Below are positions 5,678 to 34,371 of a DNA stretch of 64,000 bases, one piece after another (the stretch's first letter is position 1; each line of letters begins with the position of its first letter). The notes under the pieces are model-generated. The model worked only from the letters and a program-made list of their open reading frames with translations, was not told the DNA's origin and made no database searches. Location of the stretch: IMG/VR virus record IMGVR_UViG_3300035181_001974, one strand, 5' to 3'. This DNA is from a virus. The position numbers were made by a program, and so were the translations under genes.

Positions 5678-5693
5678 CAACAAACGCAGCGAA

Positions 5694-5723: not shown

Positions 5724-5763
5724 TGTTGTGCAAAACAACCATCACAGAGAATAGAGTCAAGGT

Positions 5764-7175: not shown

Positions 7176-7381
7176 CCAGGAAGCCGTGAAGGAGGCGGGA
7201 GCCCACCTCGACGGGAAGCTTCCGCTTCATCCCGGACTCGCGAAGCGTAACTCTTATGCTCACCTCTGGGAACGCATCAAGTCAACGAAGGGGAAGAGCT
7301 ACAAGGACTGCGGAGACGATGAGGTCGATGAGATCCTCACCATTGTGAAGCATTACCGCGACAACCCCTGCTGAGGATGCC

Positions 7382-8450: not shown

Positions 8451-9338
8451 ATGAGCGAGATGAAAAAGTTCCCGCGCACAAGACACATTCGTGGTTCGCG
8501 GTTCCAACATGGGGACGACGACCTCGAGGCCGTCCCGTGGGAGGAGCTCGCCGGCAAACACCTCCTCATCGAGGAGAAGATCGACGGTGCTAACGTCGGC
8601 ATTTCCTTCGTCGACGGTGAGATGAAGCTACAGTCGCGTGGGCACTACCTTCATGGAGGTCCCCGTGAAAAGCAGTTCGAACTGTTGAAACAGTGGGCAG
8701 CGACACATGAGATGGGTTTGTACGAGATGCTTGGCGAACGCTACGTGATGTACGGTGAGTGGATGTTCGCCTGTCACACGATCTGGTACGACAGGCTACC
8801 ACACTACTTCATGGAGTTCGACGTCTTCGACAGGGAGACCGACACGTTCCTGTCGACACCCGCCCGTGACGAGTTGCTGAGACGCACGTCTGCACCCGTC
8901 AGGATCGTGCCTGTGCGGGTGATCGCAACTGGCCTTGTGTCGGGCGTCGAAGAGCTGAAGTCTATGATCGGCCCGTCTGCGTTTGTGAGCGAGGGAAAGT
9001 CACGTCACAACGACTCGTTGCTGTCGTGCGAGTCTTCGTGGTACGATGCTGTTGTTGTGTGTAACGTCCTGGGTAAGAGGGGACACTACGTGTTCCAGCA
9101 GGACGAGTGGATCGCCAGATGTGAAGAGCTGCGAAAGAAGTACTACGTCGGTCCCACGATGGAGGGCCTCTACGTCAAGTGGGAGAAGGACGGTATCGTG
9201 AAGGGCCGCTACAAGTTCGTGCGTGACGACTTCGTCAGCCACATCGCGGGGCAAGACGAACACTGGCACGACAGACCCATCTTGCAGAACGGCCTGATTC
9301 CAGGTGCGCTGGAGCACATGTTCAGGAGCGACACGTGA
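8451..9338 (+). CDS. rnl: ATP-dependent RNA ligase (Rnl2-like)
   Basis: ligase motif I KxDG in LLIEEKIDGANVGISF; motif IV-like YGEWM; size ~295 aa. Confidence 0.75.
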   Translation: MSEMKKFPRTRHIRGSRFQHGDDDLEAVPWEELAGKHLLIEEKIDGANVGISFVDGEMKLQSRGHYLHGGPREKQFELLKQWAATHEMGLYEMLGERYVMYGEWMFACHTIWYDRLPHYFMEFDVFDRETDTFLSTPARDELLRRTSAPVRIVPVRVIATGLVSGVEELKSMIGPSAFVSEGKSRHNDSLLSCESSWYDAVVVCNVLGKRGHYVFQQDEWIARCEELRKKYYVGPTMEGLYVKWEKDGIVKGRYKFVRDDFVSHIAGQDEHWHDRPILQNGLIPGALEHMFRSDT

Positions 9339-9880
9339 TGAAGAACAAGCAGGAACCCAACCTCAACGATGTGGCCCGGTTCATCGGAGCCGCGCTGCGG
9401 TATCCCGTGCCGCGGTGCAATGGCTCGTGGTACACTGACGGGACGCAACCGTGGACGTCGACCATTATGGTCTACCAGCACAAGGTCAAGTTCGCAGACA
9501 TTCGAATCTACTGCACGTTGGCTGATCAAGCTCTCGTCACAGAACGTTGGTTGAAGACGGGGCACACTGGCGACCCTGACCAACAATTCATCGACGAGTG
9601 TTACATGTTCGATGCGCGGCACTACCGCGATTGCTACCTGTCGATGCTTGCACTGCTCCCCGGCCCCGTCGCGCAGTACGTCTGCGAGTCGGCTGACTAT
9701 TCGCTGTTGCTCGTGGCTGACCTCGAGGAACTTGATCGGGCCATCGCCTGGAACGCGGAGAAGTGGGAGAACGGCAAGTACCCGCAGTATCTGACGCACC
9801 TGTGCAGACGTTACGGGAACGGAAAGACGTTCGACGACGTGCGACAGTACGTGGCCAATGTCTGTCGCTTCAAGCTCTGA
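9335..9880 (+). CDS. hypothetical protein
   Basis: 181-aa ORF, start overlaps rnl stop. Confidence 0.4.
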   Translation: MMKNKQEPNLNDVARFIGAALRYPVPRCNGSWYTDGTQPWTSTIMVYQHKVKFADIRIYCTLADQALVTERWLKTGHTGDPDQQFIDECYMFDARHYRDCYLSMLALLPGPVAQYVCESADYSLLLVADLEELDRAIAWNAEKWENGKYPQYLTHLCRRYGNGKTFDDVRQYVANVCRFKL

Positions 9881-20301: not shown

Positions 20302-20622
20302 TTGCATCGTTGTTTCATAGCTCGTCACCCAGCTGAAGCCCACCTGGAACAAGCTGCCCAAGTGGCTCCGCGTGCTGATACCCATTGGTATGGCCACGTT
20401 GCCGCAGATCGCCGACATGGCCGGCTTGGTACACACCAGATTTTCGTTCACGATGAAAGCGTGTACTACGAAATTAAGGGAAGGTGGTCTGACAAGGCGT
20501 GCTATCAGCTTGCACTGATGCGAATCAAGTTTCCTGAAGTGACTATCGTGGTCATTGACGGTGTCCAGTACCGTCAATTGGGTCTACAGTACCGTGACAA
20601 GGTAAGGTGGGAAGGTAAATGA
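20302..20622 (+). CDS. small PD-(D/E)xK-like ORF upstream of dnaE (possible homing-endonuclease relic)
   Basis: IFVHDESVYYEIKGRWSDK...TIVVIDG resembles the nuclease cores of HEG at 22907 ([12 protein letters not shown]...VVVASG) and the relic at 29868 (VYVEVKGWWRDD). Confidence 0.35.
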   Translation: MHRCFIARHPAEAHLEQAAQVAPRADTHWYGHVAADRRHGRLGTHQIFVHDESVYYEIKGRWSDKACYQLALMRIKFPEVTIVVIDGVQYRQLGLQYRDKVRWEGK

Positions 20623-20676
20623 CGCAGCAAGGAAAGGAGGACGCCAAGGGAAGCTCGGTGCGAGTGCCCCGACGAT

Positions 20677-22362
20677 TTGTCGGTTTGCACAACCACACGG
20701 GCTTCTCGTAATGCGCCCTTCGATGGTTTGGGCTATCCCGATGAACACTTCAAGTGGTGCATGGAGAACGGGCTCGATGGCCATGCCATCACCGAGCACG
20801 GGAACATGAACTCCTATGCCCACGCTCAACTGTGGGTCGAGGAGTGGGCCAAGGCCAATAAGGGAAAGTCGTTCAAGTACATTCCCGGCGTCGAGGCGTA
20901 CTACCATCCCGACCTGGAGCAATGGAAGAAGGACGTCGAACTCGCAGAGCAGGCGAAGGGAGACAGGAGGGTTGCGGCCAAGCTTGCTAAGGAGCAGGAA
21001 AAGCTGCAGACCAAGATCATCGCCACCATCGATGAAAATGATGAGACTGAGGACATTGAGATGTCCAACGCCTTGACTGTCGAAAACGAGGAAGAGTCCA
21101 AATCGACCAAACACTTCAATCCCGTCAACCGACGGCATCACCTAGTCATTCTGCCCAAGAACCAGAAGGGCCTGTTGGCGATCTTCGCAGCATGTTCGAA
21201 GGGATTCTTGAAGGGCTTCTACAAGTTCCCGCGCATTGACCATGCTGTCCTCAAAGAGGCAGCCAAAGGCGGCGACATCATCGTCAGCAGCGCTTGTATC
21301 GGCGGCATGCCGGCGTACTCCATATTCCAGGAAATCCAACAGTACAAGTTTGACGAGCTCGACGCACGGTTGCTCAGTGACCCTGTGCTGCTCGAGAAAT
21401 GCGTTGTCGCGGTGGGCAATACCTACCAGCACATGGTCGATGCAGTCGGCGAAGGAAACTACTTCCTCGAGCTGCAGTTCAATCGCCTACCGGCGCAGAA
21501 CCTCGTCAACCGCGCGATCCTGGAGTTCGCTCGTCGCAATGGGCTCAACAAGCAGCTGATCGTCACCGGCGATGCTCACTACTATAATCCCGATCGTTGG
21601 AAGGACCGTGAGCTCTACAAGCGCCTGGGTTGGATGAACTACCAGGAGATCAATCCTGACGCGATTCCGAAGTCGAAGGATGAGCTGAAGTGTGAGCTCT
21701 ATCCGAAGAACGCCCAACAGATGTGGGATGAGTACCAGCGCTCCAAGGAAGGCACCGACTGGTATGACGATGAAGTCGTCTGTGACGCCATTGAGCGGAC
21801 TCACGATATCGCACACAGTGTCATCGGGGAGATTCCACCCGATCGTTCGCCCAAGTTTCCGACGAGGTTGTTGGTGCCCGAAGGCACGACCTCGTTCAAT
21901 CACCTCATCTCGCTTTGTAAGGTGGGCATGGTGAAGCGTGGTCTTCAAGACAAGCCAGAGTATATCGCGCGCCTCAAGGAGGAACTCGGCGTCATTAAGG
22001 TGATGAAAAACTCTGACTACTTCATTTCCTACCAGAAGATCATGGAGCTGGCACGCAATGTGTGCCTTACCGGCCCAGCCCGCGGTTGTTTCGTTCCTGA
22101 GACGCGGGTTCTAATGGCTGACGGCATGCATGCTCCCATTGGCACCATCAAGGTGGGCGACGTTATCAAGGATGCATATGGTGTTGATCAGATGGTGACT
22201 CAGATCTTCAGGTATCAGGTTGATGAGGAGCTGCTAGAACTCGAGTTTGATGACGGTAAGAAGATCAGGTGCACCAAGGAGCATAAGTTTCTGACGAAGA
22301 ATCGTGGGTGGATTGAAGCACAACACTTGACTGAAGATGATGACCTAATCGAGGTTGAATGA
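20677..22362 (+). CDS. dnaE: DnaE N-terminal extein (PHP + palm start) fused to N-intein 1; true start at 20618 in another frame (frameshift)
   Basis: frame A 20618..20710 encodes MTQQGKEDAKGSSVRVPRRFVGLHNHTGFS* (PHP motif), frame of ORF continues NAPFDGLGYPDEH...; N-intein 1 = 22087..22359 (CFVPETRVLMADG...LIEVE). Confidence 0.8.
   Translation: MSVCTTTRASRNAPFDGLGYPDEHFKWCMENGLDGHAITEHGNMNSYAHAQLWVEEWAKANKGKSFKYIPGVEAYYHPDLEQWKKDVELAEQAKGDRRVAAKLAKEQEKLQTKIIATIDENDETEDIEMSNALTVENEEESKSTKHFNPVNRRHHLVILPKNQKGLLAIFAACSKGFLKGFYKFPRIDHAVLKEAAKGGDIIVSSACIGGMPAYSIFQEIQQYKFDELDARLLSDPVLLEKCVVAVGNTYQHMVDAVGEGNYFLELQFNRLPAQNLVNRAILEFARRNGLNKQLIVTGDAHYYNPDRWKDRELYKRLGWMNYQEINPDAIPKSKDELKCELYPKNAQQMWDEYQRSKEGTDWYDDEVVCDAIERTHDIAHSVIGEIPPDRSPKFPTRLLVPEGTTSFNHLISLCKVGMVKRGLQDKPEYIARLKEELGVIKVMKNSDYFISYQKIMELARNVCLTGPARGCFVPETRVLMADGMHAPIGTIKVGDVIKDAYGVDQMVTQIFRYQVDEELLELEFDDGKKIRCTKEHKFLTKNRGWIEAQHLTEDDDLIEVE
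22087..22359 (+). other. N-intein 1 (91 aa), followed by stop
   Basis: C1 after GPARG; block A CFVPETRVLMADG..GTIKVGDVI; block B TKEHKFLT. Confidence 0.8.
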
Positions 22363-22446
22363 AACTCAACTAAGTTTACCTGATCCTCGTCAAATGTCTA
22401 TTAGACAGGGATCTCAAGGCTTACATGAAGAGAGCGAACGCATATC

Positions 22447-22944
22447 ATGAAGCTCAGAAGTAAGACTGTCGTACCGTATAAGGGTGAGGTCGTAGACCTG
22501 TGTGTGGAAAACAGCCACACTTACAACGTGGAAGGTATTGCAGTCCACAATTCGGGCGGTGGCTCTCTGGTCGCCTACGTCCTATACATCACCGACTTGG
22601 ACCCGTTGTTCTGGGACCTGCCTTTCGCGCGATTCCTTAGCGTTCACAGGTGTCTGTCGCCAGACACAAAGGTATTGATGTCAGATGGTTCGTCGTCCGC
22701 GCTTCGAGACGTGAAAGTCGGTGACAGCGTTGTCTCACAGGATGGCTCACACCGTAAAGTTACGTTCACCATGACCACAAAACATGAGAAGACGTACCGC
22801 GTGAAGGTGAATGGTACTACGTTCACGTGTTCTGAAAATCATGTGTGGTTGACAGTGGGTCCTGATGGACAACCTGTGAAGAAGTATACATCTGAGCTGT
22901 CGACGAGTGACGAGCTGTACACGTACCACTATGAGCATCATTGA
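22447..22944 (+). CDS. dnaE: C-intein 1 (22447..22551) + extein 2 (22552..22650) + N-intein 2 (22651..22941)
   Basis: [35 protein letters not shown]|[33 protein letters not shown]|[13 protein letters not shown]... Confidence 0.8.
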
Positions 22945-23872
22945 GAAACAGTGTAAACACTGTGGTATTATGTTTCAGTTCAACTATGAGCCCAACTGCA
23001 AGGGTTCTGGTAGTAGGCTCCATCGCCCGTACTGCACTGATGAGTGTGCCGTCGCTCACAGGAAGCTGATGTCACACGCTCCCATGCCCTCGAGGCTTGT
23101 GAAGACGTGCGTCGAGTACGGCGATGAGTTCTACGTTCCAAAGTGTCACAACAACAGAAAACTATGTTCGAATGCGTGCAGGCACAAGTACACTGCGAAA
23201 GCGCTGACAAAGAATGAGCTCCGTACACTGACATGTGTACAGTGTCTAGGCACTTTCTCAACGAAGAACGTCAATCGCAGGTTCTGTTCACCCAAATGTT
23301 TCGCTGCATCGAGGTTTGACCGCCACACGTTGGTATGCGAAGTTTGTAGCGAACCGATCGTCACCAAGAAGAGCTACGTGCCGCGGTTCTGTTCCAAACG
23401 GTGCACCCGCGAGGCACAGTCACGTGATATGGTTGCTTCACATGTGAACGGACGCTCGTGTTTTCGTTCCGACATCCTAAACAGCCCGTACTTCAAGAGC
23501 TCGTTCGAAGCCGACTACTACAGATATTGCTTGCACCTCGGTAAGATGCCATTCTATGAACATAGGTCTTTCCATGTTGTCATCGATGGCAAAGAGAAGT
23601 GTTACACTCCAGACTTTTGGTTCAGTGATGAGGACCGATACGTGGAGTTGAAAGGTGTGCGAGAAGGCAAATCGCGTTTCTCAAAGTTGCTTAACTCAAA
23701 CGCACGTTCACGGGAAGTCGTTGTGGCGTCTGGTCAGCGCATCGACGTCGTGTACATGAATGACTTCTATGGTGAACTTCGTCGACAAGGTTTGTACCAT
23801 ACGATTGCCAATCTAGAGCACAGGGACTATGCAGGAACCCAACATCTCATCAGCAAGCACGGCCAAAATTGA
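22907..23872 (+). CDS. free-standing homing endonuclease (multi CxxC zinc-ribbon + PD-(D/E)xK core) between halves of intein 2
   Basis: six or more CxxC pairs; C-terminal [17 protein letters not shown] = PD..(D/E)xK motif; nested between N- and C-intein 2. Confidence 0.65.
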
Positions 23873-24566
23873 AGCTATCGAGGTTGTCGATGAAAGTGTA
23901 GAACTCATCGACATCGAGGTCGAAGGCCAGCATACGTTTTGGGTGTCCAACAACGATAGCGATTGGGTGCTGACACATAACTCTGGTGCTCCTGATATCG
24001 ACTGCGTCCACGAGGACCATCTTGTCGTCATGACAGACGGCACTCATAAGCGAGCTGTTGACATCATTGTCGGCGACGTCGTCCTGGGAGGCGATGGAAT
24101 GCCACACGCAGTAACTGCGACCTATGCTAGAAATTTGCGGCCATTCGAGGACGCTGTCTGGGTCAGAGTTAGGGCCAATGATGGTACGTTGGGCCACATT
24201 TTGGTGGTGCCCGGTCACAAATTTGTCAGAGCTGACGGCGTCATCGTGTACTGCCGCGACCTTAAGGTCGGAGATGAATTGATGGCATCATGCGGCAGCG
24301 TTGAGGTCGTATCGATCGAGCACGGTGGTTGGGGCTCTTCCAACGCTAGATACGTCGACCTGACTGTTGAAGACGATCACAGATTCCACGTGGTACCGTT
24401 CAATACGTCCATTCTAAGTGGAGGTGATCCATCACATGACGTCGGTTATTGCATGGGCGTCATTCCTGGCACGTTCCTTGCGTGTGGCGAAGGAGACAAT
24501 TTTTGCAGCGATTGGTGCGCGTCTAAGAGAAGAACAGACCACAGCGAGCGCAACTATGAAATTTGA
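23829..24566 (+). CDS. dnaE: C-intein 2 (to 23981) + extein 3 SGAPDID (23982..24002) + N-part of intein 3 (24003..24563)
   Basis: ...VELIDIEVEGQHTFWVSNNDSDWVLTHN|SGAPDID|CVHEDHLVVMTDGTHKRAVDIIVGDVV...PGHKFV...RYVDLTVEDDHRFHVV then a non-extein-like tail. Confidence 0.7.
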   Translation: MQEPNISSASTAKIEAIEVVDESVELIDIEVEGQHTFWVSNNDSDWVLTHNSGAPDIDCVHEDHLVVMTDGTHKRAVDIIVGDVVLGGDGMPHAVTATYARNLRPFEDAVWVRVRANDGTLGHILVVPGHKFVRADGVIVYCRDLKVGDELMASCGSVEVVSIEHGGWGSSNARYVDLTVEDDHRFHVVPFNTSILSGGDPSHDVGYCMGVIPGTFLACGEGDNFCSDWCASKRRTDHSERNYEI

Positions 24567-24868
24567 GCTGGAGTTGGGACCGTGTCCGAGCAACGTTGAT
24601 GCGGTGCAGCTTACAGACAACGGCGATTCTGCCGAGCAGATGATGTGATAGTGTCTGGCCTGGAAAGAATAGCTCAGACGAGAGCTGCAGAAAATCCTGA
24701 ATTTCAAGATTGTCAGGTCAAACTGCGCGTTAAAGGGTTTGAGCACGATTTGGCCCCCATACTATGGGGCTACGTCGTGCGATGACGCCGACGCCGACGA
24801 GCGCACAATTGACGCCATCTTCTGGCTCAAAGAAAATGCGTCCTCAAAGTTTGACGATGACATTAGCG

Positions 24869-26602
24869 TCACGCTGTGACGTCTAAGACGTAGCGAGAGT
24901 TGCTACAGCCATAGATGCGATAAACGCCGGCAGCCTCCGCTACCTGTTTTTCTGTTAGACCTTGCTTCTTGTTGGCTCGGTACTTGAACCTGTCGTAACG
25001 ATGCATGAAGTCAGTCCACCAGAAGCGAGCGACTGTGGTACCGTTGAACTTCATGCCTGAGGTGGCATAACCGTTTCCTCCCAAGCGATTGTCTGAGTAA
25101 GACATCAACCTCGCTGCATTGTTTTCTCTTGCTATAGCTTTTGCCTTTGATAGCAATTTTGACACCCCGCCTCGTACATGTGTGCCAAGCTTGAAGCACA
25201 GGCGAGCGATCTCAATCGTCGTTCTGTCTGCCCCATTTCGTGCCCACCTAAGGCTGCAGGCGCCTACGATTTCGCCCGATGAGGTTACCAATCGCACGGC
25301 AAATTGGGCCCTCACGTGACCGTCGAGGTGGCACTGATTGATGAATTCTCGAACTTCTTCGGGCTCGCAGCGTTCTGCTTTCAACTTACGCGCATCGACT
25401 TTGGTAGAAAACCCAAGGCGATGGCGCAACATGCTTTCGATTATCGGTCGTTTGTCGCGCCACTCATCCTCAAATAACGTGAAAAGCGATACGCCGGCTT
25501 TGAGGGACAGCAATCTCTTCTTTTCCGCGTGATCGTGCTCAAATCTATTGGCGGCCTCGCTGTGCCAGTATAGGCCATTGCACTCGATGGCAAACATGCG
25601 CGATGGAATGAGTATGTCGAGCTCCATTCCGCCGAGCGTCTTACGATCGCTAAGGACTGCGTCAGGTGCCAGCGTCTGGATAAATGCGTAGACGTCCTGT
25701 TGCCACCTGCTCGTTTTGTCTGACCAAGGCGGAAAGCAGGTGGGACACTTGGCCTCGTTGTTGAACACTGCGCCAACGCAACGCTCAAATATTGTTGAAC
25801 ATATCGTGCATTCGATGCGCGCTTTGGTGACAGTATCGACATATTCGTCAATGAGTTTAAGCTGCTTTTCTTTGAGGCGTTTTTGTACCTCGTCGTGCGT
25901 CAGCAACTTTGCCTTGCGCATTTTTTCAAGCGTTACGTCGCTAAAGAATCGTCCTTTCAACGAAGCGCTGATCTTCTTACTGCGAGATTCAATGATGCTA
26001 GACGTATCCTTTGTCAGGCCAAGTGACCAGCCGCTGTGCGTTGCATAATACCTCCGCAGGCTGTCGCTGATTTTTGCCGCCTTTTGTTTAAGGCTTTCGT
26101 TGTTTTCCTTTGTCTTGTCGGAGTTGTGGTGACCGTGTTCCTTGTAGTGAGCTCGCATGTTTGCAGCACTGGCTGACATGCGTTCGTCATTGTCTTTCGT
26201 CAGGCCTTTGTTCCATGACGAGGTGCCCTTGGACGCGTATGCGTGTTTTCGGCTACAACGTGGACACCGTTCGGGGTATCCTTTTTCTTGATCGATGAAC
26301 CTGACCCAGTCGCAACAATCGATGCACGTCTTCCTGCACCCTGGGTACCTTGTTTCATACACAACGACGGGTGATTTTTGGTGCGTTTTTGTGCAGTGCA
26401 ATGTCAACTTACGCCCGCTGTCATATGACGCCTCACACCACGGACACGCGTAAGTTGACACCTGTTTGGGAGGCCTGGCGTCTTCTCGCCTGTGTCGTGC
26501 CTCGTGGATCTTCAATGCTCGTAGCGTTTCGTGGTTTCGACCACAACGAGCGCATGTAAATTCAACTGTAGTTGAGTTAGGATTCATGTGATGGTCGTTC
26601 AT
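24869..26602 (-). CDS. homing endonuclease: C2H2 zinc fingers + NUMOD3 + Vsr-like (DUF559/EDxHD-type) nuclease + C-terminal GNAT-like domain; inserted antisense inside intein 3
   Basis: FTCARCGRNHETLRALKIHEARH and YACPWCEASY..HCTKTH fingers; NUMOD3-like GHHNSDKTKENNESLKQKAAKIS; nuclease core ELDILIPSRMFAIECNGLYWHSE...D; C-terminal RGGVSKLL...RFWWTD shared with 27288..29087. Confidence 0.7.
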   Translation of the reverse strand: MNDHHMNPNSTTVEFTCARCGRNHETLRALKIHEARHRREDARPPKQVSTYACPWCEASYDSGRKLTLHCTKTHQKSPVVVYETRYPGCRKTCIDCCDWVRFIDQEKGYPERCPRCSRKHAYASKGTSSWNKGLTKDNDERMSASAANMRAHYKEHGHHNSDKTKENNESLKQKAAKISDSLRRYYATHSGWSLGLTKDTSSIIESRSKKISASLKGRFFSDVTLEKMRKAKLLTHDEVQKRLKEKQLKLIDEYVDTVTKARIECTICSTIFERCVGAVFNNEAKCPTCFPPWSDKTSRWQQDVYAFIQTLAPDAVLSDRKTLGGMELDILIPSRMFAIECNGLYWHSEAANRFEHDHAEKKRLLSLKAGVSLFTLFEDEWRDKRPIIESMLRHRLGFSTKVDARKLKAERCEPEEVREFINQCHLDGHVRAQFAVRLVTSSGEIVGACSLRWARNGADRTTIEIARLCFKLGTHVRGGVSKLLSKAKAIARENNAARLMSYSDNRLGGNGYATSGMKFNGTTVARFWWTDFMHRYDRFKYRANKKQGLTEKQVAEAAGVYRIYGCSNSRYVLDVTA

Positions 26603-27445
26603 TCATTTTTGGCGTCCAACAAGAGCGTCGTTGTTCACAACACCGATCTTGCCAGGCGAGATGAGGTTCTTGATGAACTTCGAAACTTTTTTGGGTGGGA
26701 AAACGTCGTTCCCATCAGCAATTATAACTGTTTCAAACTAAAAACGCTTGTAAAGGATATCGGCAAGTTCTACGGCATCCCATTCGAGGAGACCAACGCT
26801 GCCACGCGGACCGTCGAGGACGAGGTCCGTAAGGCGACGATGAAGGAAGGCGACGACAAGAATCTGTTCGTCTTGACCTACGATGAGGCCATGGCCTTCC
26901 ACTGCAGGGCTCCTAAGGGCCCGGAGTCGAAGTCCATCTGCCAGGGCTGTAGCCCAGAGTGTAAGCAGCCGGTCAGCCCGTCGTTTCGCGGCTTCATTGA
27001 GAAGTACCCGGTCGTCGCCGAGTCGATCAAGATCCTCTTCAAGCAGAATCGTAGTCTCGGTCGTCACGCGGGTGGTGTGCTGATTGCAGACGATTTGCCC
27101 AACAAGATGCCTTTGGTGACGTCCAAAGGCAAGGCCGGCGTCCGCGAGCCACAGTCACCTTGGGTCGAGGGCGTAAATTATAAACACCTTGAGAAGATCG
27201 GAGAGTTCATCAAGTACGACCTCCTAGGTCTAGAAACGATGCGGCTCATCGAGCGCGCCATCGAGCTCATCATCAAAAAGGAACGACATGAAAGAGGGTG
27301 GTTTGAGATCCAACTCGACGATGGAACGACACGAGGCGTCTACGGCGACCAACGAATCGTCACCAGCAACAGGGGCACCATCCTTGCGAGGGAGCTCGGG
27401 CCCGGCGATGACATCGTGTCCTTCGAGGTGCCCACAGTGCAATGA
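26588..27445 (+). CDS. dnaE: very short C-part of intein 3 (at most 22 codons, ..HSFLASNKSVVVHN) + extein 4 (DnaE palm/fingers segment)
   Basis: VVVHN|TDLARRDEVLDELRNFFGWENVVPISNY..KTLVKDIGKFYGIPFEE aligns to E. coli [48 protein letters not shown]; later RHAGGVLIA, KYDLLGLETMRLIERAIELI; in-frame stop 3 codons upstream of the first listed start. Confidence 0.75.
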   Translation: MMVVHSFLASNKSVVVHNTDLARRDEVLDELRNFFGWENVVPISNYNCFKLKTLVKDIGKFYGIPFEETNAATRTVEDEVRKATMKEGDDKNLFVLTYDEAMAFHCRAPKGPESKSICQGCSPECKQPVSPSFRGFIEKYPVVAESIKILFKQNRSLGRHAGGVLIADDLPNKMPLVTSKGKAGVREPQSPWVEGVNYKHLEKIGEFIKYDLLGLETMRLIERAIELIIKKERHERGWFEIQLDDGTTRGVYGDQRIVTSNRGTILARELGPGDDIVSFEVPTVQ

Positions 27446-29087
27446 TCCATTGCGAAAAGCTAGCCTAAATTCGCTCCGCGCACATCTCCTTAAAAAGCAC
27501 GGGCTCAATGCGGAGGCTGCGTACCTTCTTTTTCGAGAGCACCCTGGACCGTGCGTTCAGTGTTCAGGGCCGGTCAAGTTCATGACCTTTCAAACGGGAT
27601 ATGAACGTCTCTGTGGAGTTTGTAGCAAGAAGAACTCTCAAGTAAGAGGTGCGCTTAGCCGGAAATCAAAATCATTGCCTGCATGGAACAAGGGGCTGTC
27701 AGAAACAACGTCTGAATCGGTTCGAAGGGCCGCACAAGGTTGTCGTGATTTCATCAAAAAACACGGGCACTGGAGAACAGGACAAACTAAAGAAAATAAT
27801 GAATCTATCACAAGAGCTGCGCATAACATCTCTCGAGCATTGACTGAAAAATGGCAAGTAGAAAAACACTGGACGCAGCACGGTCAGACGTCAGAAACTG
27901 ACGATAGGATCAAACGGCGATCAGAACGGATCGGCGAAGGCGTTCGCTTGAATCATTGGTCTCGGAACGCTAATTCTGAAGATATCAAACGTTCGATCAT
28001 CGAGACTAGAAAACGCCTTATCGAGAACGGCACTAACTCTCCTTTTCGGTTGTCTCTCGAAGAGGTCGAACGGCGAGTTGATGCACTGCGGTCGAGGTGG
28101 AACATCGAAAAATTTGAGTTTGCTGGATACTCAACACCGGTGCATGTGACATGCGTCAGTTGTAACGTACCTGATATTGTTCCCTTTAACGTCCTTTACA
28201 AGGGAAAGGTGTGTTCAACGTGCTACCCGGCTAATTTCTCTCGCTGGCATCGTGAGGTGTTCGATTTCTTCGTCAAGCTCGATTCGAACGCCATCGCCAA
28301 CGACAGACAGTCAATCGCGCCTTATGAGCTGGACATCGTGTCAGGTAACGGAAGGATTGCCATCGAGTGCAACGGTGTCTATTGGCACAGTGAGGCGACC
28401 GGTACTCCACCATCGTATCACCAAGACAAGTCGACTCGCGCTCTTGAGCGTGGTGTGTCGTTGCTACATATCTTCGACGATGAATGGCACCATGATGTAA
28501 AGAAAAACATCATCAAAAGCATGATCAGGGTAAAGCTTGGTCTTGCTACTCGCGTGATGGCACGAAAGCTACATCTTCGCAGCGGTCGTCCAGCCATCAC
28601 CGCTCAGTTCATGGCGAACAATCACCTCGATGGAAACACTCCTTCGTCGCATTCGTTCTGGCTAGAGGACATTGCTGGAAACATTATTTGTGCATTGACA
28701 TTGCGAAAACCGCACCAGCAGACTAAGTGGGGATCTAAGACAATTGAATTGGCGCGGGTTTCAACGGCCCGCGATACCATCGTCGTTGGAGGCATGTCGC
28801 GGTTGATCAACGCTGCCAGGGATTGGTCACGTGAGCATGGTTACCAAAAAATGATCACATACCGTGACATGAGGTTGGGTGGCACTGGCCGGGCGTATGA
28901 ACTATCTGGTTTTAGATTTGATCACATGACGCAGCCTAGGTTTTGGTGGACGGACGGACAAAATCGTATCGATAGATTTGCTGTCAGGGCGATTCCGGGG
29001 ATCGCATCACAAGAAGAGATGGCGATGGAACACAGGCTTTTTAAGATCTTTGGTTGCTCCAACGCGGTGTACGTTATGGACCTGTGA
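27411..29087 (+). CDS. homing endonuclease (paralog of 24869..26602) inserted directly in the dnaE extein; ORF track start 27288 is probably an overlap artefact
   Basis: Zn-finger/NUMOD3-like N-terminus, Vsr-like core ELDIVSGNGRIAIECNGVYWHSE, C-terminal GGMSRLI...RFWWTD...FGCSNAVYVMDL domain. Confidence 0.65.
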   Translation, partial: TSCPSRCPQCNDPLRKASLNSLRAHLLKKHGLNAEAAYLLFREHPGPCVQCSGPVKFMTFQTGYERLCGVCSKKNSQVRGALSRKSKSLPAWNKGLSETTSESVRRAAQGCRDFIKKHGHWRTGQTKENNESITRAAHNISRALTEKWQVEKHWTQHGQTSETDDRIKRRSERIGEGVRLNHWSRNANSEDIKRSIIETRKRLIENGTNSPFRLSLEEVERRVDALRSRWNIEKFEFAGYSTPVHVTCVSCNVPDIVPFNVLYKGKVCSTCYPANFSRWHREVFDFFVKLDSNAIANDRQSIAPYELDIVSGNGRIAIECNGVYWHSEATGTPPSYHQDKSTRALERGVSLLHIFDDEWHHDVKKNIIKSMIRVKLGLATRVMARKLHLRSGRPAITAQFMANNHLDGNTPSSHSFWLEDIAGNIICALTLRKPHQQTKWGSKTIELARVSTARDTIVVGGMSRLINAARDWSREHGYQKMITYRDMRLGGTGRAYELSGFRFDHMTQPRFWWTDGQNRIDRFAVRAIPGIASQEEMAMEHRLFKIFGCSNAVYVMDL

Positions 29088-29105
29088 AAGTACCTTTACA
29101 AAGAC

Positions 29106-29582
29106 ATGGCAAAAGTCGTTGCTAACGTTGACGCACATACAAATGCGGTATCATTCAATGACATCAAGACCTGGTTCGAGCAGCACATGCACCCGGCCGT
29201 CATTGATTTCACCGATCCCAAACCTTACGAGGTCTACGAGAAAGGCAAGTGGGCAGGCATCTTCCAGTGCGTCGACCAGGACACGGCAGTGCTGATGGGC
29301 GATGACTCGTACAAGTTGATCAAGGACGTCCATGTCGGTGACGAGGTGACGGTCTTCGATGAAGTCAAGCAGCAGTTCACCACATCAGTCGTCGACGTCG
29401 TTTACGACCAAGGACCCAAGGAGTGCATCGAGCTCGTGTTCGACGACGGCAAGAAGCTTGTCTGCACCGCTGATCATCCCATCTTGACGAAGAATCGCGG
29501 GTGGGTTGAGGCACAGCACCTAACCGAAGACGACGAGTTGATTGGGTCTAGCAGTGGTTACGAAGCTCGTGGATTGACGTGA
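29106..29582 (+). CDS. dnaE: extein 5 (29106..29267) + N-intein 4 (29268..29579)
   Basis: AVIDFTDPKPYEVYEKGKWAGIFQ|CVDQDTAVLMGDDSYKLIKDVHVGDEV...; N-intein 4 tail (LVFDDGKKLVCTADHPILTKNRGWVEAQHLTEDDELI) is paralogous to the N-intein 1 tail. Confidence 0.75.
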   Translation: MAKVVANVDAHTNAVSFNDIKTWFEQHMHPAVIDFTDPKPYEVYEKGKWAGIFQCVDQDTAVLMGDDSYKLIKDVHVGDEVTVFDEVKQQFTTSVVDVVYDQGPKECIELVFDDGKKLVCTADHPILTKNRGWVEAQHLTEDDELIGSSSGYEARGLT

Positions 29583-29666
29583 GGCGGGCGTTTTGGTCGC
29601 AGGTTTCGCCGCGACCGTGGCCATGTCGCCTTACAGAGACGCAACAGGCCCACGACTCCGCAACAT

Positions 29667-30056
29667 GTGATTGTACGGACGCGCTCCGCTCATCGTAGCG
29701 CCCCTTTGTACTTTCTGCACTCAGCGGGCAACGGGAACGGAAAGAATGGCGTCGTCGACCTGTATGACAACTGGCGTCATTGCATGGACGAGGGCTTCAG
29801 CGAGGAGGAGATCAGGATCCAGCTCACAAGAGAGGCGTACATGATCTTCCATCGTCAATGACCGACGTTGGAGCTCTTTAAGCGGGTGTACGTGGAAGTC
29901 AAGGGCTGGTGGCGTGATGATGCTAGGGAGAAGTTTGACGCATTCGTAACGTTGCATCCGACGCTCAAGTGTGCACTTGTCAGTGGATATGACCTACAGT
30001 TGCTAGAAAAGAAGGAGACGACGCTTGAAGCTTGTGTCATCACGCAGCGTGGGTAA
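29667..30056 (+). pseudogene. decayed homing-endonuclease relic (PD-(D/E)xK core) between halves of intein 4, with in-frame TGA at 29859..29861
   Basis: ...MIFHRQ*PTLELFKRVYVEVKGWWRDDAREKFDAF resembles [15 protein letters not shown] of HEG 22907; far too short for a functional HE. Confidence 0.5.
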
Positions 30057-30624
30057 GCGCCACGTCTACGACATCGAGGTGCGAAATCATCATAATTTCG
30101 TCGCTAACGACGTCGTTGTTCACAATTGCACGGGCCAGGGCGCTCAGCGACTCTTTGTCAAAGGCAAGCCCAAGAGCATCATCGACATCGCGACGCTGAC
30201 CAGCATCTATCGCCCGGGTCCCTTGGCCGCCAAAGTCGATCGACTGTACTTGGAGGCGAAGAATGACGGCAAGGAGTTGGAGTGGGGCGATCACCGCGTC
30301 AACGACATCCTGAAGAAGACATACTCGTGTTTGACGGGTGACACACATATCCTTACTGAGCAAGGTGAGGTTCCCATTAGACAAATCGTTGAACAAGGAA
30401 TGGTGGGAACTAAGCTTCCGTCATACAATGAAATGACGAAGACCGTCGAGATGGACGAAGTTGTCGCTGTCGCCTCAAACGGCGTACGTGACATCATCGA
30501 GGTTGAGCTGGAGGGTGGAGAAACTTTGTCTTTGACTGAAGATCACCTTGTCATGACGCCTCGTGGTTGGGTGCAAGCAGGTGAACTGACGTCTGAAGAC
30601 GAGATTTTGGGAATGAAGTACTGA
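30025..30624 (+). CDS. dnaE: C-intein 4 (30025..30126) + extein 6 (30127..30327) + N-intein 5 (30328..30621)
   Basis: MKLVSSRSVGKRHVYDIEVRNHHNFVANDVVVHN|CTGQG..IATLTSIYRPGPLAAKVDRLY...KKTYS|CLTGDTHILTEQGEVP...; IYRPGPL matches DnaE ALFRPGPL. Confidence 0.8.
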   Translation: MKLVSSRSVGKRHVYDIEVRNHHNFVANDVVVHNCTGQGAQRLFVKGKPKSIIDIATLTSIYRPGPLAAKVDRLYLEAKNDGKELEWGDHRVNDILKKTYSCLTGDTHILTEQGEVPIRQIVEQGMVGTKLPSYNEMTKTVEMDEVVAVASNGVRDIIEVELEGGETLSLTEDHLVMTPRGWVQAGELTSEDEILGMKY

Positions 30625-30630
30625 AACCAG

Positions 30631-30830
30631 GCTACTTCGTCGTGCCATCACTCAACCTCATCATCGAGTACGACGGCGACTATTGGCACAGTAACCCAGC
30701 GAAGCATGAACTAACACCTGCGATGAAGAAGCAATTTAGGCTTGATCAATTATGGACGCTTGCCACAAGAACTTGAGGCTTCACGGTGTACCGCGTCTGG
30801 GAGTCTGATGCCTTGAACTATCACCTCAAA
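30631..30830 (+). pseudogene. Vsr-like (DUF559/EDxHD-type) nuclease-core relic with in-frame stop, between halves of intein 5
   Basis: YFVVPSLNLIIEYDGDYWHSNPAKHE...RLDQLWTLATRT*GFTVYRVWESD matches only the catalytic core of HEGs 24869/27411/31990; no DNA-binding region. Confidence 0.5.
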
Positions 30831-30847
30831 TTGAGGACAATTTAGAC

Positions 30848-31093
30848 ATGAAGATTGATGATTTTGAAGAGGAGTTGCTTACGTCGTTCAAGAACTTTAT
30901 CAACACGATGAAGTCACATACGGCATTTGGAAAGCGTGATGATCTCACGTATGCCGACTGGTTCGACACATTTCGAGCTTATGAAGAGGTCGGAAATGAT
31001 ATGGAGCTCGAATACCATGGTCAACGTGTTTTGAGTGTTGATGGACCAGTGTGCCAACTCTGCGCATCATCATTGAACATGAAAGAAAAATGA
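30848..31093 (+). CDS. hypothetical small protein inside intein 5 gap
   Basis: 81-aa ORF. Confidence 0.35.
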   Translation: MKIDDFEEELLTSFKNFINTMKSHTAFGKRDDLTYADWFDTFRAYEEVGNDMELEYHGQRVLSVDGPVCQLCASSLNMKEK

Positions 31094-31094
31094 T

Positions 31095-31412
31095 ATGAGC
31101 GCAGATCTTTACACTAGCGAGATCGATGACGATGTTTATGGATCTCTAACGCTAGAGATGAACGTTCATGGGAATTTGCGAATCATTGCATATGATCCTG
31201 GGACTAGAGATTTGGTAGGTTGCTGTCAGTTTCCACCCTCGCATGAGGGTTTCAACGAAGCCCAACGATTGATCAACGCTTTGCAAGAATGGATGCGTCA
31301 TGTGGGGGAAAATCTCAACCCTTGCCGAGTCGTTCTAGGCAGTGATGCTTTGTCGCGCTCAATGTCATTACACATTGTTTGTCAGACTCATCGTGAAACG
31401 GAGCGTAAGTGA
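31095..31412 (+). CDS. hypothetical small protein inside intein 5 gap
   Basis: 105-aa ORF, start 1 nt after previous stop. Confidence 0.35.
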   Translation: MSADLYTSEIDDDVYGSLTLEMNVHGNLRIIAYDPGTRDLVGCCQFPPSHEGFNEAQRLINALQEWMRHVGENLNPCRVVLGSDALSRSMSLHIVCQTHRETERK

Positions 31413-32110
31413 TGCCTGACGTAGTTCCCGTCAAGATCCGTGCGATCAAGCGTGTTCCTGCACAGCCTGTGTACGACATCCAGGTCAAGAAGAACAACAA
31501 CTTCTTCGCAAATGGCCTTCTCGTGCATAACTGCATAATTTTTCAGGAACAGGTGATGGAACTCGCCGAGAAGGCTGCCGGCTTCCCGAAGGACAAGTGT
31601 GACGAGGTCCGTCGCGCAATCATGAAGCGCAGCATCTCGGGCGGTGAGGCGGCAAAGAAGGCAGCCCAAGAGACCCGTGACGGGTTCGTCAAGGGTTGCA
31701 TCGCCAACGGTTATACCGAGAAGGTGGCCAACAACCTCTACGACAAGATTCTGTACTTCGCGGGCTACGGCTTCAATAAAAGTTTGTACTTTTCGGAACC
31801 AGTAAATACCTTTTTTTCAGACGGCACGTTCAAAGAGACAAAGCAGCTTCAACACATCGAACCCGGCGACCTGGTCATGTCTCGTGATGAGAATTCAGGT
31901 AAAAACATCCTCGTCCCTGTTGTTGCAAAACACGACCACGGTGAGCTAGACTTGGTAGAAGTGGAGTTGGTGACCGGAGAGAAGGTAAAGTGCACGTGGG
32001 ATCACAAGTTCAGGACGAAGGAGACAAACGAGATGTTGCCCCTGTGGATGATTGCCGAACGGGGCCTCAGCATCGTTGTGACCGATGTAGCAGGCTCTTC
32101 GTCTACCTGA
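31409..32110 (+). CDS. dnaE: C-intein 5 (31409..31531) + extein 7 (31532..31780) + N-intein 6 (31781..32107, Ser1)
   Basis: ...PVYDIQVKKNNNFFANGLLVHN|CIIFQEQVMELAEK...KILYFAGYGFNK|SLYFSEPVNTFFSDGTFKE...TWDHKF; extein matches E. coli GIILYQEQVMQIAQ...VEKFAGYGFNKS. Confidence 0.8.
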   Translation: MMPDVVPVKIRAIKRVPAQPVYDIQVKKNNNFFANGLLVHNCIIFQEQVMELAEKAAGFPKDKCDEVRRAIMKRSISGGEAAKKAAQETRDGFVKGCIANGYTEKVANNLYDKILYFAGYGFNKSLYFSEPVNTFFSDGTFKETKQLQHIEPGDLVMSRDENSGKNILVPVVAKHDHGELDLVEVELVTGEKVKCTWDHKFRTKETNEMLPLWMIAERGLSIVVTDVAGSSST

Positions 32111-33039
32111 AGGCCTACGAAAAACACCAAGCTAGGTGCCAAGGATTCATACTCGGTGACAGTGAGAGTGTCACATGCCAAGTCTGTGGCTTCACGGGTA
32201 AGGCACTGGCAAAGCACTTGTCGGGGACGCATGGTATGAGCAAAGAAGAATACCTGAAAGCGTACCCGACTGCCGCAATCACATCGAAAGTCTCGACAGC
32301 GCGTTTCAAGCATCGTGGGCAGAATTTCGCCTGGCTCAAACGAGCGAAGGCACGCGGTGATGATTTGACTGCCTACAAGGAAAAGATGGGCCGTGCGGTC
32401 AGTGAGGCCATCACGAGCAATCCGGGCGAGAGGAAACGTCGCTCTGAACTAATGGGAGAACTTAATCGACGACCTGAAGCCCGTAAACGTTCATCAGACG
32501 TTGCAAGACTAACGTCAACCCGGCCTGAGATACTCAAGGCACGTGCTGAGCGCCTGGCCCGTTGGCGTGAGTTGAACCCCGATGAGTTCTACGAAAAGTG
32601 CACAAAAGCTGCACATGCTATTTGGCATAGCATTCCGGAATTAGCGTTGTTTGATTTGTTGAAAAACGTTGAAGGTTATGATTTTGTTCATAATCAGGTC
32701 GTCAAGTCAGTTGCTTTTCCAAACAAATCTAAAAGAAAGCAAGTTGACATTGCCGATCGATCAAGACACATTTATGTTGAATTTGATGGAATCATCCATT
32801 TTAATGCACGTATTAAAGGCGAGGATAATTTTGAACGAGTGAAGTGCATGGATGCAATGCTTGATGATTACATCACTAAACATGATTGGACACTCATTCG
32901 AATTTCTTACGATCAGTTCTCATACAAGGATGGCGGTCGCTTCGAACCTGATTGCTTGAAAAAGCTTTTTGAGATCCTGAAAGATCCTCGACCTGGCGTT
33001 CATCGGATAGGAAAAGCGTATGAAAAGACCGCCGTTTGA
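31990..33039 (+). CDS. free-standing homing endonuclease (Zn finger + basic NUMOD-like linker + Vsr-like core) between halves of intein 6
   Basis: CDRCSRL..HQARCQ and CQVCGF..H finger; core HIYVEFDGIIHFNARIKGEDN...LIRISYDQF (DUF559/Vsr pattern). Confidence 0.65.
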   Translation: MHVGSQVQDEGDKRDVAPVDDCRTGPQHRCDRCSRLFVYLKAYEKHQARCQGFILGDSESVTCQVCGFTGKALAKHLSGTHGMSKEEYLKAYPTAAITSKVSTARFKHRGQNFAWLKRAKARGDDLTAYKEKMGRAVSEAITSNPGERKRRSELMGELNRRPEARKRSSDVARLTSTRPEILKARAERLARWRELNPDEFYEKCTKAAHAIWHSIPELALFDLLKNVEGYDFVHNQVVKSVAFPNKSKRKQVDIADRSRHIYVEFDGIIHFNARIKGEDNFERVKCMDAMLDDYITKHDWTLIRISYDQFSYKDGGRFEPDCLKKLFEILKDPRPGVHRIGKAYEKTAV

Positions 33040-33244
33040 AATCGCACTGAATGACATTGCCCAACGCATGGGTCTGAGTCCGATCGAACTGTTACGGGCC
33101 GCGGCACGTTACCGACGCAAAAGCGAAACGAAGGTTGAACTCCAGCCGACTGACGAGTACATTGAAGAAGAGTATGCTAAAGCAATGCTTGATGAACCGA
33201 ACGCAGGAGCGATCGAAGACCTGTTGAAGGACCTGCTCACATGA
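33020..33244 (+). CDS. hypothetical small protein
   Basis: 74-aa ORF between HEG6 and C-intein 6. Confidence 0.3.
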   Translation: MKRPPFEIALNDIAQRMGLSPIELLRAAARYRRKSETKVELQPTDEYIEEEYAKAMLDEPNAGAIEDLLKDLLT

Positions 33245-34371
33245 GTAACATCAAGTCTATCACACCCGTGGGTCGACACCAGACCTATGACCTCGAAGTC
33301 GATCACCCGGATCACCAGTTCTATCTCGCTAACGGGATACTGACGTCTAACAGCCATGCAGTGGCATACGCCATTGACAGCTTCTGGTGCGCCTGGCTGA
33401 TGACATATCACGAGGAGGAATGGCTGTGTGCCTATCTCGAAAGCATGTCGCACACTCCTGCTCAACGTGCTAAGGCGTTCAGCGAGGTAAAGGCCTTGGG
33501 CTATCAGATCGTCCCGATCGACATCAACCTGGCGGGGCTCGGGTGGACCGCGCTGCCCGGCAAGAAGTTGATGCCGTCGATGACGTCCTGCAAGGGTGTC
33601 GGCGACTCGGCGGTCGAAGAGATCATGGCCAACCGTCCCTACAACACTATCGAGGAGTTGCTGTGGGATGACAACTTCGAGTGGAAACACAGCAAGTTCA
33701 ACAAGAAGGCGATGGAGGCCCTGGTCAAGATCGGTGCCTTCGGCAGTATGGACATCGTGGGCGAAGGCAAGGTCTTCAACAACTATCATCACATGCACGA
33801 GGTCCTCTTCGGTTCTCACGTGGAGACCGTGACCAAGAAGCGCAAGGGCGTCGAGGTCACCGAAGAGGTCGACATCGATCACGGGGCGTTGATCAAGCGA
33901 CACCCGAAGTCTGACCCGCACGAGGGCCTTAAGAACTTCTACCAGTTGGTCAGGGACTACGCTGACATCGAGGACTGGTCGTCTTCTGAACGTGCTCAAA
34001 ATATGGTCGACGTCTTCGGTGCTTTGGACGTCACCGCCATGATTGACATCGAAATCTTGGCTGCCTTGGAGAAGAAGGGCGTCAATAGCATTGACGACCT
34101 GGAGCACGGTGACACGGCGGTCGTCTGGTTTGTCACGGCCCCTGTTGCTGCAAAGAAGGGTGGCAAGCCGGTGACGGGCATCAAGAAGAAGACCCGCAAT
34201 GGCAAGGAATATGTGCAAATCTTTGCGGTTGGACCCACTGGCAAGGCCACGAAGATTTCTGTCTGGGGCGGCAAGGAGCTTCCTGACCCCTTCATCCTGT
34301 GTTGTGCCGAGGTCAAGAGGGACGACTTTGGCGCGTCGACGACGGTCTGGAAGTTGAGGGAAATCACGTAA
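33241..34371 (+). CDS. dnaE: C-intein 6 (33241..33351, ends TSN) + extein 8 = DnaE C-terminal region (fingers end, OB domain)
   Basis: MSNIKSITPVGRHQTYDLEVDHPDHQFYLANGILTSN|SHAVAYAIDSFWCAWLMTYH..; LGYQIVPIDINLAG matches E. coli GLKILPPDINSG; KGVGDSAVEEIMANR matches KGVGEGPIEAIIEAR. Confidence 0.8.
   Translation: MSNIKSITPVGRHQTYDLEVDHPDHQFYLANGILTSNSHAVAYAIDSFWCAWLMTYHEEEWLCAYLESMSHTPAQRAKAFSEVKALGYQIVPIDINLAGLGWTALPGKKLMPSMTSCKGVGDSAVEEIMANRPYNTIEELLWDDNFEWKHSKFNKKAMEALVKIGAFGSMDIVGEGKVFNNYHHMHEVLFGSHVETVTKKRKGVEVTEEVDIDHGALIKRHPKSDPHEGLKNFYQLVRDYADIEDWSSSERAQNMVDVFGALDVTAMIDIEILAALEKKGVNSIDDLEHGDTAVVWFVTAPVAAKKGGKPVTGIKKKTRNGKEYVQIFAVGPTGKATKISVWGGKELPDPFILCCAEVKRDDFGASTTVWKLREIT

Follow-up and report, generated by a model that had tools for sequence, protein, structure and literature searches.

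Why should a homing endonuclease carry, behind its nuclease, a domain that looks like an acetyltransferase? The question is raised by two genes, here called HE-A and HE-B, that interrupt the DnaE gene in IMG/VR virus record IMGVR_UViG_3300035181_001974; the window analysed is a stretch of 64,000 nucleotides from this record. A preliminary description, made from the letters alone, had taken the two genes for paralogous endonucleases with zinc fingers, NUMOD3-like repeats and a Vsr-like core, followed by a shared C-terminal region with a hint of the GNAT fold. On the evidence of sequence profiles and modelled structures, we predict that this C-terminal domain is specifically of the Mom family, that is, a relative of a DNA-modifying enzyme and not a generic acetyltransferase. 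The genes and their parts are as follows (aa, amino acids; ORF, open reading frame; HMM, hidden Markov model; AF2, AlphaFold2).

24869..26602, minus strand: HE-A, Hef-type (EDxHD) homing endonuclease gene, 577 aa, antisense to the DnaE pieces (ORF; phrog_3339; AF2 model)
25868..26602, minus strand: HE-A aa 1-245, C2H2-like Zn fingers, Zn ribbon and three W-x-x-G-L-T-K-D/E helical repeats (weak C2H2 matches; model)
25718..25867, minus strand: HE-A aa 246-295, Zn ribbon directly before the nuclease, C265, C268, C286, C289 (family alignment)
25421..25717, minus strand: HE-A aa 296-394, EDxHD/Vsr-like core, E327, D329, E340, H347, D379 (profile match to 3r3p_A)
24872..25420, minus strand: HE-A aa 395-577, predicted Mom-family GNAT-fold domain, H425, R467, G478, S481, D504, R506, Y512 (Foldseek, phrog_1384, hhalign, conservation)
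27411..29087, plus strand: HE-B, paralogous Hef-type homing endonuclease gene, 558 aa (ORF; BLASTP to HE-A; phrog_3339; AF2 model)
28236..28532, plus strand: HE-B aa 276-374, EDxHD core, E306, D308, E319, H326, D357 (HMM match, E~1e-34; invariant columns)
28533..29084, plus strand: HE-B aa 375-558, predicted Mom-family GNAT-fold domain, H405, R449, S463, D486, R488, Y496 (Foldseek, phrog_1384, residue string)

By identity and architecture, which are highly probable, the two genes encode free-standing homing endonucleases of the Hef/EDxHD (Vsr-like) kind that are paralogues of each other. Both ORFs are present where they had been placed, and BLASTP aligns them over their full length (32% identity, ~568 columns, E=3e-84), reaching the last residues. 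The order of parts is common to both: Zn fingers and helical repeats, Zn ribbon, EDxHD/Vsr-like core, and a C-terminal domain of ~180 aa. PHROG families labelled 'homing endonuclease' and 'HNH endonuclease' (phrog_3339 and phrog_559) cover both proteins end to end; phrog_3339, 'homing endonuclease', matches HE-A at aa 72-574 with E=3.5e-59 and HE-B with E=8.4e-60. The HE-B gene overlaps the end of the fourth DnaE piece by 35 nucleotides, and its ORF has a further in-frame ATG upstream, at 27288; the start at 27411 is reasonable because homologue alignments begin at a CPxC motif just past it. AF2 models were built from alignments of 112 sequences for HE-A and 97 for HE-B, and have mean pLDDT of 93.0 and 90.6, respectively, exceeding 95 across the nuclease and C-terminal domains. 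Family conservation is counted throughout in the alignment of 112 homologues, with HE-A numbering; mean pairwise identity there is 43% in the nuclease, 36% in the Mom-like domain and 25% in the N-terminal array, which is the least conserved region.

The nuclease residues are 90-100% conserved, and the string EDEHD is found in HE-A, HE-B and 103 of the 112 homologues. Searched alone against sequences of the Protein Data Bank (PDB), HE-A gives zinc-finger noise, with GCN5 and 3r3p below threshold; a profile of 22 sequences covering HE-A aa 296-394 has a sole significant match, I-Bth0305I (3r3p_A, E=3.6e-7). This enzyme is the prototype of EDxHD/Vsr-like homing endonucleases, among which Taylor et al. 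2011 (PMC3239194) also put 'Hef type' phage endonucleases. With the residues intact in both proteins and this profile match, the E..D..H..D core read in the preliminary description proves to be genuine. HE-A and HE-B share with I-Bth0305I the nuclease core and its catalytic residues, a modular N-terminal DNA-binding region and a tie to self-splicing elements; however, I-Bth0305I is intron-encoded and stops at the nuclease domain, whereas HE-A and HE-B have a Zn ribbon before the nuclease and an additional Mom-like domain of ~180 aa that starts 1-3 residues past it.

The N-terminal part of HE-A (aa 1-245) is presumed to be the target-binding array. C2H2-like matches, together with the CxxC...CxxC ribbon, whose cysteines are at least 90% conserved, agree with the zinc fingers noted earlier. 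The 'NUMOD3-like repeats' of the same account stand as a resemblance, i.e., three W-x-x-G-[LQ]-T-K-[DE]-[NT] units with a helix after each one in sequence and model, but not as a database match, as Pfam NUMOD3 (PF07460) fails to match the repeats of either protein even at E<=10. Precomputed PF07460 matches exist in 9 homologues.

The C-terminal domains of the two proteins are 36% identical, including the RGGVSKLL and RFWWTD stretches that had been quoted as their hallmarks. Compared with PDB by Foldseek, the HE-A model has as its top match the Mom protein of phage Mu (8bv8_A, E=2.4e-7), and the HE-B model has as top matches 8bv8_B and 8bv8_A (E=6.7e-6 and 3e-5); after Mom come more than 100 GNAT structures at E<=1e-3, with TM-scores on the target of 0.5-0.69. 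The acetyltransferase-like fold that had been suspected, in which a mixed β-sheet has α3 following β4 and α4 following β5, is thus found in the structure predictions of both proteins. PHROG family phrog_1384, 'Mom-like DNA modification protein', matches with E=1e-10 (HE-A) and 1.8e-6 (HE-B), and a search of BFVD retrieves the full-length architecture in ~20 phage proteins named 'endonuclease-like' or 'homing endonuclease', and then stand-alone proteins named 'Mom' (E=9.6e-10) and 'NAT_SF'. NCBIfam XF1762 matches at ~4e-7, under its cut-off, and precomputed matches to Pfam Mom (PF25680) exist in six homologues.

RGGVSKLL, thought in the preliminary description to be reminiscent of GNAT motif A, indeed aligns with motif A of GCN5 (QVRGYGTRL) when a four-sequence profile of the domain is compared with that protein (E=4.5e-5). 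In terms of the motif A consensus, Q/R-x-x-G-x-G/A, the first Gly (G478) is present in 108 of 112 homologues, but at the last G/A position family members have a hydrophobic residue (L/M/F/V). The cofactor loop of the HE-A/HE-B family reads V-x-G-G-h-S-[KR], with K or R at position 482 in 108/112; this Gly-rich V-x-G-G-h-S-K loop is nearer to classical GNATs than to Mom. Two other accounts of the region are rejected. A plain DNA-binding module without GNAT fold is ruled out by both structure predictions, and similarity by chance or low complexity by the full-length paralogy (E=3e-84) and by thousands of homologues.

The active site of Mu Mom is lined by H58, Y59, R111, S124, D149, R151 and Y159, as described in a 2026 study (PMC13219725). 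R111, S124, D149 and R151 are essential and the S124A mutant is inactive; all six positions compared below are essential or strongly required (PMC13219725). Alignment by hhalign of a 111-sequence family profile with Mu Mom (E=3.6e-5, probability 71%, i.e., of moderate confidence; an earlier four-sequence profile gave a weak 21%) pairs these residues with the following positions of HE-A:

Mom H58: HE-A H425, in 109/112 homologues
Mom R111: HE-A R467, in 109/112
Mom S124: HE-A S481, in 72/112, plus 30 with Gly
Mom D149: HE-A D504, in 107/112
Mom R151: HE-A R506, in 103/112
Mom Y159: HE-A Y512, in 104/112

The residue string at the six positions is HRSDRY in both HE-A and HE-B, and the whole conserved polar set of the last 180 aa consists of H425, R452, E464, R467, G478, Y502, D504, R506, Y512, R535 and R538. 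Mom also has a β6-β7 insertion (residues ~175-209), which is indispensable and has been modelled as a DNA-binding element presenting a flipped-out deoxyadenosine (dA) (PMC13219725). Its counterpart in the HE-A model is aa 523-560, lying between strands 518-530 and 561-574 with a helix at 551-558; it aligns with the region of Mom 174-209, though the sequence motif differs. The motif of HE-A, RFWWTD..R..RF-K-x-R-A, is the most conserved and most basic stretch of the domain, in the same topological place as the insertion of Mom.

Mu Mom, then, is the best structural match for both models, and has in common with HE-A and HE-B the GNAT fold, the β6-β7 insertion and the six active-site equivalents. 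Sequence identity to it is only 14-18%; the V-x-G-G-h-S-K loop stands where Mom has PRNSES, the insertion sequence (RFWWTD..R..RF) is different, and the domain is here always fused to a nuclease and never stand-alone. Mom-type residues are intact and nuclease residues are not in 31 of 236 homologues, some of them truncated; the reverse is seen in 23. Judged by such sequence patterns, the Mom-like domain appears to be under independent constraint and to be conserved almost as strongly as the nuclease.

The preliminary description regarded an extra, catalytic-looking domain on a homing endonuclease as unusual. It turns out to be the standard build of Hef-type endonucleases: nuclease and Mom-like domain lie 1-8 residues apart in 235 of 249 retrieved homologues (1-3 residues in 213 of the 235), and the domain is the end of the protein in 231 of 249. 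By tblastn, the nuclease–Mom tandem of the HE-A type is found in 414 phage records at 26-32% identity, and since the alignments extend from the repeats across the nuclease to residue ~572, the C-terminal region belongs to the whole family and not just to HE-A and HE-B. Many of these matches, in Campylobacter phages, PA5oct and Lak phages, are labelled 'Hef-like homing endonuclease'. An exhaustive HMMER search of 1.84 billion cluster representatives yields 15,741 matches at E<=1e-3, of which 9,898 reach E<=1e-10; most of the best 150 are proteins of 400-650 aa that have the domain at their extreme C-terminus. A word-indexed homologue search with the C-terminal domain alone retrieved 2 proteins. 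HE-A and HE-B are therefore new, distant members of a known, very large kind. They share the full-length architecture of the Hef-type endonucleases of T4-like, Campylobacter and jumbo phages (Hef58-60 of NCTC12673, PA5oct), with BFVD matches of 500-600 columns, but are less than 35% identical to them and interrupt a fractured DnaE gene, where HE-A is placed antisense between the two halves of a split intein, whereas those lie between structural or nucleotide-metabolism genes.

The fusion itself was noted by Iyer et al. 2021 (PMC7824862), who described jumbo-phage proteins that join a Mom domain to a nuclease of the restriction fold, five of them in PA5oct, and predicted that they are restriction-plus-protection systems. 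PA5oct has five matches to HE-A, labelled as Hef-like homing endonucleases, and evidently the Mom-REase fusions and HE-A/HE-B are one protein family. The extra C-terminal domain goes unmentioned in Dassa et al. 2009 (PMC2677866) and Taylor et al. 2011 (PMC3239194), as do nuclease fusions in two papers on the mechanism of Mom; the literatures on homing endonucleases (Hef, EDxHD) and on Mom fusions have not yet been joined. What was read as restriction and protection has, in HE-A and HE-B, the genomic behaviour of homing endonucleases, and this behaviour is seen at the DnaE locus.

The DnaE gene, encoding the alpha subunit of polymerase III, occupies ~20619-34371 on the plus strand and is broken into at least eight ORFs (20677-22362, 22447-22944, 23829-24566, 26588-27445, 29106-29582, 30025-30624, 31409-32110 and 33241-34371). 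Six of the breaks look like competent split inteins (Cys/Ser1 ... HN, then S/T/C). In two relatives, L004 and L009, the gene is interrupted far less often. Three pieces adjoin the genes under study (a slash marks the junction with the extein):

23829..24566, plus strand: DnaE piece 3, C-half of intein 2, extein SGAPDID, and N-half of intein 3 from 24003 (translation; Hint/PT-HINT matches)
26588..27445, plus strand: DnaE piece 4, C-half of intein 3 of 17-18 aa (..VVVHN/T), polymerase core extein (Pfam DNA_pol3_alpha 110-260), and a degenerate Hint-like tail of ~50 aa; the layout in the relative L004 is identical
29106..29582, plus strand: DnaE piece 5, downstream of HE-B, short added head MAKVVANVDAHTN, extein, and N-half of intein 5 (comparison with the relatives L004 and L009)

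Inteins 2 and 3 are separated by just the 7-aa extein SGAPDID, a polymerase catalytic motif. HE-A lies antisense between pieces 3 and 4, that is, between the halves of intein 3 (Cys1 ... VVVHN/T), inserted in the catalytic PDID/TD motif. Its orthologue in L004 (59% identity) is antisense at the same intein-3 site, with a 17-aa C-intein as in the window, while L004 is free of inteins 1, 2 and 5 and of the HE-B break. HE-B is on the sense strand between pieces 4 and 5, at the polymerase/finger junction, and has an orthologue (56% identity) at the identical junction in L009. The upstream DnaE piece of L009, with 759 contiguous aa, implies that this relative is without the HE-A/intein-3 insertion and that its HE-A site is uninterrupted (..GAPDID/TDLA..); the uninterrupted HE-B site is seen in L004 (..ELILQKEGNPSPTFDD..). 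A third relative, L008, has at 5293-9506 an HE-A-like and an HE-B-like gene on either side of a 281-aa homologue of DnaE piece 4, the former at the intein-3 site and the latter at the polymerase/finger junction. The neighbouring ORFs there are small unknowns and not other DnaE pieces, and the DnaE fragments may be dispersed in that genome.

Each gene thus sits at its own fixed break in DnaE, with the site filled or empty in relatives, and this is the behaviour of homing elements. Further homologues are free-standing, between sheath and baseplate genes. Because of the fixed insertion sites, filled or empty among relatives, the free-standing homologues and a nuclease remnant in an intein gap, we take HE-A and HE-B for homing genes and not for a generic restriction system. 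PADLOC returned for the locus just a weak generic 'HEase' match, so they are not a catalogued defence system either. The arrangement recalls the 'fractured genes' of Dassa et al. 2009 (PMC2677866), in which a split intein breaks the host gene and its two halves enclose a free-standing gene for a Vsr-like or GIY-YIG endonuclease; DnaE is among the hosts listed there. Like those, HE-A lies between split-intein halves in the gene of a DNA-replication enzyme, and there is coding overlap with a neighbouring gene; unlike those, where all three ORFs are on one strand, HE-A is antisense, and the break at HE-B is without intein catalytic residues.

What, then, might the Mom-like domain do in such an enzyme? 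Mom modifies N6 of adenine in double-stranded DNA in a reaction that depends on Gly-tRNA(Gly), moving glycine from the tRNA to the DNA adenine (PMC13219725). Since the family keeps the catalytic pocket of Mom, a Gly-rich cofactor loop and a basic β6-β7 insertion, the domain is most likely not passive and engages DNA. It probably binds a cofactor or nucleic acid and is functionally required. To the best overall explanation, that it is an active or cofactor-binding module acting on the target DNA, we give an even chance; catalysis of DNA modification falls somewhat short of that. A fully bifunctional Hef-type endonuclease, in which the domain would be brought to one long target by the DNA-binding array and, with aminoacyl-tRNA or acyl-CoA as donor, would modify a base covalently at that place to leave a site-specific mark for immunity or targeting, is a tentative proposal with the balance somewhat against it. 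A role of the domain in self-protection is rather doubtful.

In the mechanism that we infer, the uninterrupted DnaE allele would offer a long target for docking of the N-terminal array, the EDxHD nuclease would cut, and recombinational repair would copy the homing gene in. The Mom-like domain would most likely bind the same DNA beside the cut site, take a flipped-out base into its pocket and transfer to it an acyl or aminoacyl group, from aminoacyl-tRNA, in the way of Mom, or from acyl-CoA. The likeliest benefit would be a 'cut or mark' logic like that of restriction-modification enzymes made as a single chain: cognate or near-cognate sites that carry the mark, in the resident genome and in repair products, would be spared re-cleavage, and unmarked co-infecting or superinfecting relatives would be cut. 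A bifunctional enzyme of this kind would be without precedent, both as a homing endonuclease that modifies DNA and as an enzyme of the Mom type that is directed to a site, in effect a naturally targeted DNA-modifying module; and were ~10,000 homing endonuclease clusters to mark DNA, homing biology would gain a new layer, of self-immunity or modification-guided cleavage. Because Mom is now known to move glycine from tRNA to DNA adenine, DNA marking by homing endonucleases is directly testable.

Several points weigh against a DNA-marking role. The equivalent of S124 is Gly in ~30% of family members, and in the hhalign alignment Y59 (aligned to L/I426), W48 of the dimer interface and W181 are not conserved, the two tryptophans being without a conserved aromatic equivalent. 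The residue pairing itself comes from a profile-to-single-sequence alignment of moderate confidence, combined with the fold match, and not from superposed coordinates. Both proteins fall under the gathering scores of the Pfam GNAT and Mom models; for Mom (PF25680), HE-B scores 12.2-15.5 bits against a cut-off of 27.1 and HE-A has no match. The literature yielded no biochemical evidence of DNA modification by any Hef-type protein. As insertion of HE-A, and probably of HE-B, itself disrupts the target, a protective mark is not obviously needed, and in a mixed infection a diffusible enzyme is unable to tell self from non-self DNA by location.

The main rival, which we consider an unlikely but serious one, is that the domain is a non-catalytic, exapted module: a DNA clamp or base-flipping 'reader' adding specificity, and/or a dimerisation surface for making the double-strand break, its 'catalytic' residues being kept as the lining of a base-binding pocket. 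Mom is an obligate dimer (PMC13219725) and I-Bth0305I acts as a homodimer; but W48, the dimer residue of Mom, is not conserved here, and intron-encoded EDxHD enzymes, I-Bth0305I among them, need no Mom-like domain to dimerise and cut. The rival also agrees with the modelled flipping of dA by Mom (PMC13219725), with the rigid nuclease–Mom junction, with Gly replacing the key Ser in so many members, and with the fact that the HE-A target is already destroyed by the insertion, which makes protective modification unnecessary. Against it, the near-invariant V-x-G-G-h-S-[KR] loop (G478 and K/R482, each in 108/112), together with all acid/base residues of Mom, exceeds what mere binding would need.

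It is improbable that HE-A and HE-B are not homing endonucleases at all but single-chain, restriction-modification-like weapons, in which the Mom domain would modify phage adenines broadly and the nuclease would attack host or superinfecting DNA. This is in essence the prediction published for the same fusion with its five PA5oct copies (Iyer et al. 2021, PMC7824862), and the two intact enzymatic centres and the many copies per genome in some phages accord with it. The genomic setting does not: both genes are at gene-breaking sites in an essential polymerase gene, HE-A at the PDxD motif between split-intein halves, orthologues occupy the same sites, relatives have the sites empty, and decayed nuclease remnants lie in neighbouring intein gaps. 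The long, variable arrays of Zn fingers and repeats are typical of homing enzymes with long targets, and several divergent paralogues would be redundant if the modifier were generic. Restriction-modification, in short, fits the enzymology and not the genomic behaviour. The Hef protein of phage U5 is reportedly known from experiment to cleave near its own gene.

Least probable by far is an acetyltransferase of proteins or small molecules, or a toxin-like GNAT acetylating aminoacyl-tRNA, that targets factors of the host or the phage, for instance proteins of recombination or repair: generic GNAT acetyltransferases do come close behind Mom in the fold search and the profile does match GCN5 including motif A, yet the nearest structure and the only named family matches are Mom or Mom-like, the conserved equivalents of R111, D149 and R151 are specific to Mom and not general GNAT features (PMC7261163), the fusion to a DNA nuclease is obligatory, and a basic insertion occupies the DNA-binding position of Mom.

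The two breaks that hold HE-A and HE-B differ from each other. The split of intein 3 (24003-24566 and 26588-26641) is atypical, its N-half containing block F (YVDLTVEDDHRFHVV) and a Cys-rich tail of ~55 aa, and its C-half being only 17-18 aa long (MMVVHSFLASNKSVVVHN/T); the split is kept in L004 as MVVHSFLGRGHSVVVHN/T. Since its C-fragment is so short, this natural split intein may be of interest to protein engineers. The break at HE-B (27284-27445 and 29106-29144) is not a canonical split intein, its flanks being without Cys1, TxxH and the +1 nucleophile; the upstream piece has an extra Hint-like tail of ~50 aa (GWFEIQLDDGTTRGVYGDQRIVTSNRGTILARELGPGDDIVSFEVP), and the downstream piece gains just MAKVVANVDAHTN, followed by Ala. 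The tail is conserved in L009 (4880-5056 and 6701-6750), and the site is continuous in L004. This break may represent a degenerate intein that was retained for docking, in which case DnaE would be two chains here.

Several features lie elsewhere in the DnaE gene and the window. Near the 5' end of DnaE the reading frame appears to shift by +1 at TCG TAA T (20700-20715), where one frame ends in ..RRFVGLHNHTGFS-stop and the next continues with NAPFDGLGYPDEH, the L004 homologue having GLHAHTGFSAFDGLGYPDEH in a single frame; an error of assembly, a lesion in a pseudogene or programmed frameshifting could each account for this. The halves of intein 1 (22363-22446) are 85 bp apart with no endonuclease gene between them, and this is a split intein whose homing gene was lost or never present. 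Other split-intein halves enclose, at 22907-23872 (plus strand), a 321-aa Zn-finger protein with a PD-ExK/endonuclease-I-like C-terminus (phrog_1271, phrog_945) and, at 31990-33039 (plus strand), a protein of 349 aa that combines a Ros/MucR zinc finger with a Vsr-like core, matches the nuclease part of phrog_559 and is without a Mom-like domain. A remnant of the EDxHD core, LIIEYDGDYWHSNP, is found in the gap between the halves of intein 6 (30597-30773, plus strand, E=6e-7), and a weaker one at 48950-49153 (plus strand, E=5e-4). The PD-ExK motif Y-[VY]-E-[VI]-K-G occurs in two short ORFs on the plus strand, one upstream of DnaE (20302-20622) and one between the halves of intein 5 (29868-30056). 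Promoter and terminator scans around HE-A and HE-B gave background levels, and there are no tRNA genes within the window. This degree of fragmentation of a single DnaE gene may be more unusual than the nuclease–Mom finding itself. The window probably derives from a jumbo phage that is uncultured, since among 50,697 deposited phage genomes no DnaE exceeds ~25% identity to its DnaE extein, and part of HE-A has an exact copy on a 309-kb JGI metagenome contig.

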